Virus record (IMG/VR): IMGVR_UViG_2534681662_000010
Direction: 5' to 3' (one strand)
Source: a virus
Taxonomy: Duplodnaviria; Heunggongvirae; Uroviricota; Caudoviricetes
Length of the DNA stretch: 19,333 bases
Part shown: positions 2,885-4,996 of the stretch, one piece after another
Numbering within the stretch: the first letter of the stretch is position 1
How the letters are laid out: every line of letters begins with the position of its first letter
The notes under the pieces: model-generated
Seen by the model: the letters and a program-made list of their open reading frames with translations, nothing else
Database searches by the model: none
What the model was told of the DNA's origin: nothing
Position numbers and translations under genes: made by a program

Positions 2885-2916
2885 ACGCCAGAATAATCGC
2901 TGGCGTTTTTCTTTTT
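2885..2916 (+). terminator. Rho-independent terminator-like hairpin (ACGCCAG-loop-CTGGCGT) plus T-run
   Basis: Stem 2885-2891 / 2900-2906, then TTTTTCTTTTT. Lies between the AraC fragment and the holin; could be the AraC gene terminator or a tR'-like late terminator. Confidence 0.6.
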
Positions 2917-3012
2917 GAATAGATGTTCAGGCCTTACGCTAATGTAACTTCTATACCTTTCCCTCTTCGTTCCGAACCGTGTACACCATCCGTTATTTGC
3001 GGAGGTGAGGCT

Positions 3013-3228
3013 ATGAAATCCATGGACAAGTTAACAACGGGCATTGCCTACGGCACCTCCGCAGGCAGTGCTGGCTACTGGTTTTTACAGTGGCTTGATC
3101 AGGTCAGTCCATCACAGTGGGCTGCTATTGGTGTGCTGGGAAGTCTGGTTCTGGGCTTTCTGACTTACCTGACGAATCTGTACTTCAAAATAAGAGAAGA
3201 CAAGCGTAAAGCTGCGCGGGGAGAGTAA
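3013..3228 (+). CDS. Phage 21-type class II holin (pinholin) with dual-start motif (Met1 antiholin, Met4 holin)
   Basis: GGAGGTGAGG RBS, then [71 protein letters not shown], which matches the remembered S21 pinholin almost residue for residue: two TMDs and a basic C-terminus. The track ORF start at 2923 is an upstream extension. Confidence 0.9.
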
Positions 3229-3232
3229 TTCA

Positions 3233-3577
3233 ATGACTCAAAACTATGAACTGATTGTGAAAGGGATCCGCAATTTTGAGAATAAAGTTACGGTAACTTT
3301 AGCGTTACGGGACAAAGAACGCTTTGACGGTGAAATTTTTGACCTGGACATCTCGCTGGACCGTGTTGAAGGTGCCGCGCTGGAGTTTTATGAGGCAGCA
3401 GCCAGAAGGAGCATCAGACAGGTCTTCCTGGATGTTGCTGCCGGGTTATGTGAAGGGGATGAGCTGTCGCCGGAAAAGCGCCCCATAATTTTAGAGGCGC
3501 AGAATGTGTGGATAACCTACAAAGGAAAGCTACCGGGAAGAATTACTGGTTCTCTGAAGACTCCGCCGAAATGGTAA
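3233..3577 (+). CDS. Hypothetical 114-aa protein inserted between holin and endolysin (possibly YdfR/DUF1327-like lysis-cassette protein)
   Basis: ATG 5 nt after the holin stop, with GGGGAGAG RBS; soluble, no TM segment. Position matches the essQ-ydfR-rrrQ arrangement of the K-12 Qin prophage, but homology is not verified. Confidence 0.6.
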   Translation: MTQNYELIVKGIRNFENKVTVTLALRDKERFDGEIFDLDISLDRVEGAALEFYEAAARRSIRQVFLDVAAGLCEGDELSPEKRPIILEAQNVWITYKGKLPGRITGSLKTPPKW

Positions 3578-3815
3578 TTTCACCAGCATATTTTTCTTCC
3601 AGTAATACCGCCAGCCACTTGAAAGAATTTTGTTGTTGCTGGGACCATTTGGGGTTGAGTGATTCAAGCTGGAGCGATGCCAGTGTTGGTTGCATTTGTT
3701 CCTTGGGAATTGAGAATGCCAGATATGAAAATGCGACAGTAAGGGCATTTACATCATCCCGAAGCTTGGAAATGCAGTCGAGCAACTCCTGTAGAGAAAT
3801 GGTGCTATTGTCCAT
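3543..3815 (-). CDS. Hypothetical 90-aa protein, convergent with and 3'-overlapping the 114-aa gene
   Basis: ATG (revcomp 3813-3815) preceded by AGAGAGGA at good spacing. Product MDNSTISLQELLDCISKLRDDVNALTVAFSYLAFSIPKEQMQPTLASLQLESLNPKWSQQQQ... looks helical and soluble. No family recognised. Confidence 0.5.
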   Translation of the reverse strand: MDNSTISLQELLDCISKLRDDVNALTVAFSYLAFSIPKEQMQPTLASLQLESLNPKWSQQQQNSFKWLAVLLEEKYAGEITISAESSENQ

Positions 3816-3920
3816 AAACAATCCTCTCTATTGTATTTAACTATTCCTTGCCTGATTCAACAGGCCGGGACAGATAAACATATCCAGGGTTCAGAAACCG
3901 ATAAATCCTGATAAATATCC

Positions 3921-4463
3921 ATGAACGTAAAAATCAGATACGGCCTGTCGGCTGCCGTTCTGGCACTGATTGCCGTCGGGGCGCCTGCGCCTGATATTCT
4001 CGACCAGTTTCTGAATGAAAAAGAAGGTAACCACACAACGGCATACCGCGATGGTTCCGGCATCTGGACCATCTGTCGGGGTGCCACGGTGGTGGATGGA
4101 AAACCCGTTTTTCCCGGTATGAAACTGTCGAAGGAAAAATGCGACCAGGTTAACGCCATTGAACGGGATAAGGCGCTGGCATGGGTGGAGCGCAATATTA
4201 AAGTGCCACTGACCGAACCACAGAAAGCGGGTATAGCGTCATTTTGTCCCTATAACATTGGCCCCGGTAAGTGTTTCCCGTCGACGTTTTATAAGCGGCT
4301 GAATGCCGATGATCGTAAGGGGGCATGCGAGGCGATTCGCTGGTGGATAAAAGATGGTGGGCGTGATTGCCGCCTGACAAAAGGGCAGAAGAATGGCTGT
4401 TATGGGCAGGTCGAGCGGCGCGATCAGGAAAGCGCACTGGCGTGCTGGGGGCTGGAGCAATGA
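3921..4463 (+). CDS. SAR endolysin (T4-lysozyme/GH24-like muramidase with N-terminal signal-anchor-release domain)
   Basis: N-terminus MNVKIRYGLSAAVLALIAVGAPAP is a weakly hydrophobic Ala/Gly-rich SAR segment. The E...D...T catalytic spacing is present in NEKEGNHTTAYRDGSGIWTICRGAT. Paired with a pinholin, as in phage 21. Confidence 0.85.
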   Translation: MNVKIRYGLSAAVLALIAVGAPAPDILDQFLNEKEGNHTTAYRDGSGIWTICRGATVVDGKPVFPGMKLSKEKCDQVNAIERDKALAWVERNIKVPLTEPQKAGIASFCPYNIGPGKCFPSTFYKRLNADDRKGACEAIRWWIKDGGRDCRLTKGQKNGCYGQVERRDQESALACWGLEQ

Positions 4464-4996
4464 AAATTAATCCGGATCTTATAGGCGTTGTCGTTATTGC
4501 TGGCCTTTCGGTCGCTCTCGTCAAGAGTTGCTCTCACGCCAGTAATCTTCAGAGCGATAACGACGTTCTGCGAAGTGACAACTCTATGCTGGGGCAGGTA
4601 ATCGCCACCCAGGCATTCAACTTCAATCGATTCAATCAGGTTGCAGAACATGCCAACAGTCTTAACTCCCTGATCGACACCAGCACCGAAAAAACCGTAA
4701 TCGAATACCGGGAGATTCTCCGCCGTGAAAAAACCTGTGATCTGCCTGTTCCTGCTGATATCGCTGGTGGGTTGCTCGAATACACGTACCGTTTACGTGC
4801 CAGCGCCATGCACACCGATACCGGCAGACCTAATGAAGCCTATGATCGTACCGCTACCACCAGCTCAATGACCTACTGCCAAGCTGTCTTGTGGATTAAG
4901 CCGCTACTGGCGTTGATAGAAAAAGGAAATAATAATTTTTCGAGTATTCGTGAAATTGATGAGTTGCGTTACAGACCATCTGAGCATGGCCAGTAA
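4460..4996 (+). CDS. Rz-like i-spanin
   Basis: ATG overlaps the endolysin stop (ATGA). N-terminal TM segment (LIGVVVIAGLSVALV), then a long helical periplasmic region; an Rz1-like gene is embedded in the +1 frame. Confidence 0.8.
   Translation: MKINPDLIGVVVIAGLSVALVKSCSHASNLQSDNDVLRSDNSMLGQVIATQAFNFNRFNQVAEHANSLNSLIDTSTEKTVIEYREILRREKTCDLPVPADIAGGLLEYTYRLRASAMHTDTGRPNEAYDRTATTSSMTYCQAVLWIKPLLALIEKGNNNFSSIREIDELRYRPSEHGQ
4725..4871 (+). CDS. Rz1-like o-spanin (outer-membrane lipoprotein) embedded within Rz
   Basis: Hand translation from GTG 4725: (M)KKPVICLFLLISLVGCSNTRTVYVPAPCTPIPADLMKPMIVPLPPAQ, with lipobox LVGC and a proline-rich mature part. GGAG lies 9 nt upstream. Below the ORF-track size cut-off. 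Confidence 0.75.
   Translation: MKKPVICLFLLISLVGCSNTRTVYVPAPCTPIPADLMKPMIVPLPPAQ

Follow-up and report, generated by a model that had tools for sequence, protein, structure and literature searches.

The subject of this report is a pair of small convergent genes in the lysis region of a defective Qin/Rac-like lambdoid prophage of Escherichia coli, represented by a 19,333-nucleotide stretch of DNA (IMG/VR record IMGVR_UViG_2534681662_000010; hereafter the window). The pair fills the 692 bp between the stop codon of a phage 21-type holin gene (S) and the start of the endolysin gene (R). Its late-strand member, ydfR (3233..3577, + strand), encodes a 114-aa protein of the DUF1327/YdfR family, and the gene opposing it, for which we use the working name rev (3543..3815, - strand), encodes a 90-aa protein. 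The two overlap by 35 bp at their 3' ends (3543..3577), where rev residues 80-90 and the final 11 codons of ydfR are encoded on opposite strands. The coordinates of the pair had been given in a first-pass annotation made from the sequence alone and all proved correct. We find that rev is a real gene under purifying selection, and the comparative facts point to the two genes forming a mobile two-gene cassette. We tentatively propose, with somewhat less than even confidence, that ydfR and rev are a functionally matched lysogen-phase/lytic-phase pair organised in the manner of noncontiguous operons.

The rev gene starts with an ATG at 3815, 6 nt downstream of a Shine-Dalgarno (SD) sequence, GAGAGGA (3828..3822), and is called as a gene (WP_000370545.1) by the Prokaryotic Genome Annotation Pipeline (PGAP). 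Its product, which also goes by the name 'Ybl58', matches phrog_2411, a family of unknown function, over its entire length (1-90 of 90, E=2.2e-59), and remote relatives also match this profile with e-values of 1e-10 to 1e-19. Database homologues at 75-98% identity retain the 90-aa length, and across homologues with identities as low as ~35% the frame is uninterrupted, with a length of 81-92 aa. An identical 693-bp geometry without any indels was seen in all full-length homologous regions (72/72), and the 37 unique alleles of the whole 693-bp region drawn from these 72 loci were used to compute ratios of non-synonymous to synonymous polymorphism (pN/pS). The GAGG core of the SD is present in all 37 alleles, and the part of rev outside the overlap has a pN/pS of 0.36, as against 0.8-1.5 in four of the five other frames; the value for ydfR is 0.39. 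A 110-aa plus-strand open reading frame (ORF) that mirrors rev (3508-3840) shows a still lower pN/pS of 0.23. It lacks an ATG and an SD, and its frame is interrupted by stops in six loci (L090, L093, L087, L084, L085 and L089), comprising three alleles at 85-92% identity and all three of the homologues at 57-63% identity, in each of which the reverse frame is open at 83-90 aa. We rejected this mirror ORF as a constrained gene: its low pN/pS is spurious because its third codon positions are common with those of rev, and the case serves as a warning for codon-constraint tests on overlapping strands. Within the overlap itself the variable sites are divided between the ydfR and rev frames. The PGAP call, the profile match, the selective constraint and the broken mirror frame together bear out the reverse-strand gene that had been proposed from the sequence.

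The rev protein is acidic, and its AlphaFold2 (AF2) model, with a mean predicted local distance difference test (pLDDT) score of 68.7, has four helices at residues 8-79. The remaining tail (80-90) is disordered or of low confidence and poorly conserved, and is exactly the part encoded by the overlap. The profile and structure searches advised by the first-pass annotation had a divided outcome: the forward gene could be placed in DUF1327 (see below), but rev gave no informative match in the fold search or against PDB, Pfam, NCBIfam and PADLOC. Searches of PDB sequences and of NCBIfam were likewise without a match for YdfR. A profile search of 1.84 billion representatives recovered 23 rev clusters in total, and a scan of one genome per species found rev in two loci, in Escherichia ruysiae and Citrobacter meridianamericanus. 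The rev family is real but narrow.

The remote relatives of rev are mutually homologous, with e-values between 1e-10 and 1e-48, and all match phrog_2411. In every phage context examined (8/8) a small late-strand ORF converges on the rev relative and overlaps its 3' end by 7-35 nt. In C. meridianamericanus (L089) the partner has 238 aa and overlaps by 14 nt, and the pair precedes a lambda-S-type holin and a CHAP endolysin; the C. freundii (L096) partner has 63 aa, likewise overlaps by 14 nt and stands before a different holin. Beside the terminase genes (L100) the partner has 62 aa and overlaps by 20 nt; partners of 71 aa (7-nt overlap, L106) and 60 aa (15-nt overlap, L109) are found between tail genes M and L; and two further loci have partners of 61 aa (20-nt overlap, L095) and 85 aa (17-nt overlap, L110). 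In each phage context both genes are extra with respect to the canonical operon, and the pairs occupy four different kinds of site. The partners have unlike N-terminal parts and similar C-terminal ends (RITGSLKTPPKW, KITGSLRAPIKL, RIIGSLITPPEL, RLTGDILIPLES and QIFGDLKKPPSY). When E. coli is compared with Citrobacter, the codons for the ITGSL segment show four synonymous differences, a pattern indicative of selection at the peptide level. We also noted that the C. freundii prophage has, ~1.7 kb from its rev-like pair (L096:5929-6026, - strand), a match above the gathering score (51.7 bits) to the Hfq-binding small RNA isrI (RF01392).

The first-pass annotation had asked whether the 114-aa protein belongs to DUF1327, and it does so unambiguously: residues 1-112 align with model positions 1-92 of 93 of PF07041 with a score of 144.2 bits against a cutoff of 25 (E=1.5e-42), and the protein also falls in phrog_406. 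The ydfR ORF begins 4 nt past the holin stop, after GGGGAGAG. Residues 1-72 form the conserved N-terminal domain, and they are followed by a variable C-terminal tail ending ...ITYKGKLPGRITGSLKTPPKW. This division holds for the family, in that the length variants of YdfR have residues 1 to ~72 in common and diverge in the remainder. The YdfR of the K-12 Qin prophage (b1555) has 103 aa, a different C-terminus and no antisense neighbour, and its 66% overall identity to the window protein is concentrated in residues 1-72. A very abundant 116-aa form ends in ...KTPPESQP and is followed by a 63-bp spacer, and there are further forms of 176 and 183 aa. A 2026 study reported that residues 1-72 of K-12 YdfR bind the catalytic N-terminal half of RNase E, that the protein co-purifies RNA and is essentially unexpressed in growing K-12, and that its overproduction in K-12 has a limited effect on the transcriptome, with no toxicity reported (PMC13232886). 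The form overproduced in that study was the tail-less K-12 one. A literature search on DUF1327, ybl58 and the RefSeq accessions returned nothing functional except this RNase E paper on YdfR. The AF2 model of YdfR (pLDDT 43.7) tentatively shows three strands, one long helix at residues 50-73 and a hairpin at the C-terminus; it was too poor to serve as a fold-search query and was not used as such.

The S-R gap of P21-type cassettes exists in at least five states. It may hold the 103-aa YdfR alone (K-12), the 116-aa YdfR alone, or the 114-aa YdfR with rev as in the window. In a fourth state (L233:1501-2245 and L234) the 176-aa YdfR is accompanied by an unrelated antisense gene of 86-88 aa, with a 53-nt overlap and a weak match to the leader element described below, and in a fifth (L136, L224) a 72-aa YdfR stands with a 98-aa antisense gene that has the full leader. 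YdfR may therefore be combined with any of three unrelated antisense genes or occur alone, and its C-terminus changes along with the antisense gene; in the 176-aa form it is a 62-aa C-terminal extension that overlaps the antisense gene.

A conserved element of ~90 nt is found upstream of every non-E. coli phage-borne relative of rev. From its 5' end it consists of CCCTGGTTAAGGT, a stretch of 6-7 nt, UCAGCCCG and a covarying hairpin CAGUG-GUGGGA-CACUG, followed by a spacer, a second covarying hairpin with the loop GAUGGCUGAUUA, an SD and the start codon; it combines a promoter-like box with a structured leader RNA. It was located on the + strand at L106:2907-2995, L100:3901-3993, L095:52-144, L089:3904-3993, L096:3901-3993, L109:363-449 and L110:743-813, and in ~97 further viral loci (L112-L231). 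In a 70-sequence alignment 93.5% of the cells in the helices are paired, as against 27-51% when the partners are slid, with double changes at seven pairs, and the many G-U pairs assign the structure to the strand that encodes the downstream gene. It should be noted that the alignment was gathered by an exact 15-mer from the loop, so that conservation there is by construction. An upstream UCAGCC is complementary to the loop GGCUGA, which suggests a pseudoknot; as both sequences are invariant, this pairing has no covariation evidence. A covariance model built from the alignment detected the leader at L089, L096 and L109, which had not been used in building it, with e-values of ~1e-8 to 1e-10, and a search of Rfam 15 with leader positions from 8 sources gave no match at E<=1. 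We also considered whether the element could be the anti-small RNA loci of Tree et al. 2014 and made no such link, as those measure 51-60 nt and are situated elsewhere, in the interval that separates the pR' moron from the next ORF.

In viral contigs the leader stands ahead of genes for 63-99-aa proteins that belong to at least 20 unrelated families, of which one is DUF1883 and the others have no Pfam family. Among 72 distinct cassettes with sufficient flanking DNA, 47 have a convergent ORF of 45-140 aa that overlaps the 3' end of the cargo gene by 4-54 nt; such an ORF was seen at 139 of 1200 random anchors, which amounts to a 5.6-fold enrichment. Twenty-seven partners begin with a MTLEQRVEALEK-like motif (for example, those of L115, L129, L197, L142 and L230) and have variable C-termini, and some contain a YdfR-like segment ...DFTLEGYNQRAKEHA...; these late-strand partners matched no Pfam or PHROG family. 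The cassette class and its leader RNA are apparently undescribed.

In the window itself, candidate expression signals flank rev. On its upstream side a -35 box TTTATC (3905..3900) and a -10 box TATGTT (3882..3877), separated by a 17-nt spacer on the - strand, are likely to constitute a weak rev promoter. Both boxes are invariant in the 37 alleles, the segment has the lowest nucleotide diversity of the region (pi 0.010), and in the rev-less 116-aa allele the -10 position reads CAGGTT. The motif CCCTGGATATGTT at this candidate promoter is shared with the 5' edge of the leader element in other phages (L122/L175-type leaders). The presumed 5' leader of rev contains a hairpin GCCUG-UUGAAU-CAGGC (3850..3865, - strand) that aligns with leader helix P2, and L087 has AGCCUG/CAGGCU at the same position. 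The covariance model did not find the full leader in the window at default filters; with the filters off it gave a weak 9.4-bit match at 3890..3825 (- strand), which spans one hairpin and the 5' box ACCCUGGAUAUGUU, identical over 20 nt to the sequence flanking true leaders (L122, for example); the second hairpin is missing. On the downstream side, the candidate for a terminator or 3'-end structure of the rev message is a hairpin within ydfR, GCGCCUC-N9-GGGGCGC with UUUU after it (3478..3500, - strand), 43 nt beyond the rev stop codon. The terminator scan did not call this hairpin; it is invariant in 37/37 alleles and is kept in an orphan rev copy beside iha (L085), with a strengthening change from G-U to A-U. 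In the rev-less allele ~290 bp are replaced between ~3571 and ~3863. We dropped these indel boundaries as the limits of the cassette, since the iha-linked copy and the common CCCTGGATATGTT motif argue for a larger unit, and the functional unit probably spans ~3478 to ~3905.

The arrangement, which the first-pass annotation had not recognised from elsewhere, turned out to be far from rare: of 5426 complete E. coli genomes, 1221 (~22%) have the rev segment (3571-3863), among them REL606, where it lies in the Rac prophage, a BL21(DE3)-derived Rosetta2 strain and CFT073, and the pair is nearly always annotated as 'hypothetical protein | YdfR family protein'. The literature search turned up no paper on the arrangement. 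As to whether the two genes always travel together, the 80 viral loci retrieved with the rev protein all have the order S-ydfR(114)-rev-R with identical geometry, and the remote relatives in phages have a partner of their own, but each gene is also found alone. One orphan rev (L085:2446-2718, - strand; UniRef name 'Ybl58') lies in a pathogenicity island of the uropathogenic E. coli strain F11, divergent from iha. This copy retains a 3' remnant of ydfR and the region up to the endolysin start, and is for that reason seen as a captured fragment of a phage lysis cassette. Another orphan (L084:2471-2740, - strand) is on an IncF plasmid beside an autotransporter. Orphans of this 'Ybl58' type are 57-60% identical and lie among insertion sequence remnants, both in the pathogenicity island and on conjugative plasmids, of which 75 records have the gene. 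Furthermore, remote relatives of 87-97 aa occur as single chromosomal genes without a convergent partner in other Enterobacterales, as at L103:4001-4279 and L104, between dinI and bssS, and at L102:4001-4294.

The matched-pair reading would combine these observations as follows. The S-R gap is filled by a two-gene cassette with its halves on opposite strands. YdfR would be made solely when Q-antiterminated late transcription runs, whereas rev, because it has its own ribosome-binding site and a probable weak promoter at ~3905-3877, would be made in the lysogen. Late transcription from pR' must cross rev in antisense on its way to the endolysin, and in lytic growth rev would be suppressed by the convergent transcription and the complementary 3' end as YdfR appears. 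Rev could then be active in the lysogen, exclusion of or defence against other phages being one possible activity among several, and the late partner, possibly via its variable C-terminal part, would neutralise or replace it when the prophage goes lytic. What we infer here is the promoter of rev, when the two genes are expressed, that their products interact physically, and what they do biologically. The orphan copies away from late operons, beside iha and on IncF plasmids, are what would be expected if rev can act alone in non-lytic elements.

Known pairs with such a logic include Tha/Ith of Staphylococcus aureus prophages, a related noncontiguous-operon immunity/counter-immunity pair. In phi80, taiEcA (orf63) is expressed constitutively, at a lower level once Q is made; a small protein from the late operon, AtiEcA (orf64), neutralises its product, and cognate Tai and Ati proteins bind each other (PMC11364771). 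Tab of Pseudomonas prophages is a second noncontiguous-operon case (PMC10884400). As in Tai/Ati, the opposite-strand gene of our pair interrupts a Q-dependent late operon beside a small late-strand gene; moron positions near lysis and packaging genes and orphan copies in non-phage elements are further points in common. The earlier suspicion that the two genes form a module is supported by comparative genomics. The accompanying suggestion of defence cargo carried on late transcription may hold, and an immunity/counter-immunity form of the Tai/Ati type would be its best fit.

A wider joint reading, which we regard as doubtful, would see in the window one member of a large undescribed class of hypervariable two-gene late-operon cassettes in enterobacterial temperate phages. 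In these, the partner would join an interchangeable N-terminal part, consisting of a MTLEQRVEALEK-type coil, a YdfR-like domain or both, to a C-terminal part that varies, and the convergent cargo would come with a portable promoter and a pseudoknotted leader. The pairs would be lysogen/lytic antagonists serving prophage self-immunity, and would be linked to RNA decay via the binding of YdfR to RNase E.

Several observations weigh against the matched-pair reading. Past the closest relatives the partners resemble each other weakly, with e-values of 0.004-0.1 in a tiny database, and physical linkage could account for the resemblance. The ITGSL segment also occurs in the 116-aa YdfR, which stands without rev, and in the 176-aa YdfR, which stands with other cargo, and hence the tail is not restricted to loci with rev. 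YdfR often stands without rev, in both the K-12 and the 116-aa forms. Premature stops in 3 of the 37 rev alleles and several database entries frameshifted into the neighbouring frame show that rev is dispensable in decaying prophages. The consensus scan of the window did not call the candidate rev promoter, and PADLOC-DB 2.0 (2023 library) had no match at E<=0.1 for either protein. Finally, rev and YdfR show no homology to TaiEcA and AtiEcA (hhalign probability 0.6% and 0.3%), and rev is smaller, at 10 kDa as against 26 kDa for TaiEcA. The geometry differs as well: the phi80 genes diverge, overlap by 20 bp at their 5' ends and have the counter-gene on the downstream side, whereas rev and ydfR converge, overlap at their 3' ends and have the late-strand gene on the upstream side. 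The lack of homology and the different geometry indicate that the likeness to Tai/Ati is one of logic and not of family.

The other explanations are taken here in descending order of plausibility. Rev could be an independent moron, self-contained with its promoter and terminator, the overlap with ydfR being incidental and the co-inheritance a product of physical linkage and of the position of the recombination joints. We consider this unlikely, while giving it some weight. The overlap encodes just the last 11, poorly conserved residues of rev, and an earlier stop in Citrobacter cuts it to 14 nt; promoter-like and terminator-like elements flank the gene; its relatives are found alone; and the rev-less allele is a ~290-bp replacement reaching from ~3571 to ~3863. 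However, both genes are extra and stand together at four kinds of phage site, and overlapping partners are 5.6-fold enriched over random anchors, 27 of them with a conserved N-terminus.

Also unlikely is an effector-antidote pair, resembling the operons of pore-forming colicins or, more loosely, a toxin-antitoxin system. In it the variable C-terminal part of the late partner would be harmful to the cell or directed at a host target, for instance RNase E, and constitutive rev would protect the lysogen from leaky late expression. The interchangeable N-terminal parts of the partners, with variable C-terminal parts that change along with the cargo, would suit such a scheme, as would the binding of K-12 YdfR to the catalytic half of RNase E, and the predicted small, acidic and helical rev would be compatible with an inhibitor. 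These points are opposed by the occurrence of tailed YdfR without rev in very many genomes, by orphan rev copies that have no partner, and by the limited transcriptome effect and the lack of reported toxicity on overproduction of K-12 YdfR, albeit in its tail-less form. No toxin or antitoxin family was matched by either protein.

A lysis-timing device, as raised by the first-pass annotation, is improbable. Here the rev transcript or promoter activity would hinder late transcription or translation of the SD-less endolysin, or would trigger processing of the S-ydfR-R message by RNase III or RNase E. The rev promoter region does abut the endolysin start, the endolysin is, in contrast to that of K-12, uncoupled from ydfR, the two transcripts would be complementary over at least 35 nt, and YdfR binds RNase E. 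The sequence before the endolysin start at 3921, GATAAATATCC, has no SD-like run, in agreement with what had been noted earlier. However, the same SD-less start is found in all alleles, including those lacking rev; the protein-level constraint on rev shows that it is not merely an antisense RNA; and a role confined to lysis timing is unlikely, given that pairs of this kind are also found between tail genes M and L, beside terminase genes and ahead of holins. That the reverse ORF is no gene at all, and mirrors plus-strand coding or regulatory constraint, can be practically dismissed, as the lower pN/pS of the plus-strand ORF belongs to a frame without ATG or SD that has stops in six homologous loci where the reverse frame is intact, and in rev, which forms a profile family, the ATG, the SD and a length of 81-92 aa persist even in remote relatives.

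The genes around the pair form a phage 21-type lysis cassette. The holin (3013..3228, +) is a 71-aa class II pinholin with the MKSM dual-start motif (PF04971, E=3.5e-35), which PGAP annotates as 'class II holin family protein'. The endolysin (3921..4463, +) is an rrrQ-like lysozyme (PF00959, E=1e-23) whose N-terminus, MNVKIRYGLSAAVLALIAVGAPAP, is Gly/Ala-rich and hydrophobic; judged from this N-terminal sequence, it is consistent with a signal-anchor-release endolysin. An Rz-like inner-membrane spanin follows (4460..4996, +; phrog_214, E=2.1e-54), and a 48-aa ORF with a lipoprotein-type N-terminus, MKKPVICLFLLISLVGC, embedded in it (4725-4871, +) is probably an Rz1-type outer-membrane spanin. 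PGAP annotates the enclosing Rz-like ORF alone, as hypothetical. S and R directly adjoin one another in phage 21 and DLP12. The terminator scan found no plus-strand terminator in the S to R interval of the window. The nearest same-strand stop upstream of the endolysin start is 343 nt away; in K-12 (L094, 2555-2558) the ydfR stop overlaps the rrrQ start as ATGA, so that the two are coupled, and the window endolysin is not so coupled. A terminator-like hairpin (2885-2906, +) lies immediately 5' of the holin gene. An IS1 pseudogene and a truncated AraC-type helix-turn-helix (HTH) gene (~1716-2823) are located between Q and the holin gene, downstream of lipocalin and ybgA-family genes in a moron position. 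Strain PK8566, which is 99.9% identical to the window over 2900-4500, has the gene order hokD, rem, ydfU, antiterminator Q, lipocalin gene, ybgA-family gene, IS1, HTH pseudogene, holin, YdfR-family gene, reverse-strand hypothetical gene, rrrQ lysozyme, spanin-like gene and again IS1.

If the matched-pair reading is true, about one-fifth of E. coli genomes hold an unstudied small-protein switch in prophage lysis cassettes, including the B strains and the uropathogen CFT073, and the principle of an immunity gene with a lytic-cycle antidote would be extended to a new geometry and to very small proteins. DUF1327/YdfR, the reported properties of which have so far been RNase E binding and RNA co-purification, would gain its first genomic logic. 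The wider family comprises dozens of cargo types with a common structured leader and recurrent overlapping partners.

Comparison with known systems helps to place the pair. Its forward gene is of the same family as K-12 YdfR and occupies the same site between a P21-type holin and a lysozyme, but the K-12 form has 103 aa, another C-terminus, a stop that overlaps the rrrQ start and no antisense neighbour. A moron in the sense of Juhala et al. 2000 is said to be one gene with its own promoter and terminator, examples being HK97 gp15 and lambda bor and lom. Like the lambdoid morons, the pair is extra DNA between genes that are adjacent in related phages, with candidate expression signals of its own and presumed expression in the prophage: the corresponding gap of the K-12 Qin prophage holds ydfR alone, and the window has weak promoter-like boxes and a hairpin with four U residues, neither of them called by the scans. 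It differs from them in being a two-gene unit with a conserved tail-to-tail overlap, relatives of which have a structured leader common to many unrelated cargos. In operons of pore-forming colicins an opposite-strand immunity gene with its own promoter is placed between the effector and lysis genes, and effector and immunity protein form a matched variable pair. A small gene opposing an inducible operon, between its partner and a lysis function, is likewise seen here; there is, however, no homology to colicins, and the partners are cytoplasmic proteins of 50-240 aa without translocation or receptor domains. As with lambda OOP RNA and cII, or txpA and RatA, the transcripts are convergent, have complementary 3' ends and lie in a prophage, but both strands here encode conserved proteins. 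The reverse strand, with a protein under purifying selection that has distant homologues, sets the pair apart from type I toxin-antitoxin systems and cis-antisense RNAs. It also falls outside type II toxin-antitoxin systems, as the genes are convergent, match no toxin or antitoxin family in Pfam and nothing in NCBIfam or PADLOC, and each occur alone; the toxin/antitoxin-like reading offered by the first-pass annotation, taken in its classical form, lacks support. By architecture alone the locus belongs with the noncontiguous operons (Q ... S, ydfR, rev in antisense, R, Rz), and the pair is best filed as an antisense accessory gene with a late-strand companion in a prophage late operon.

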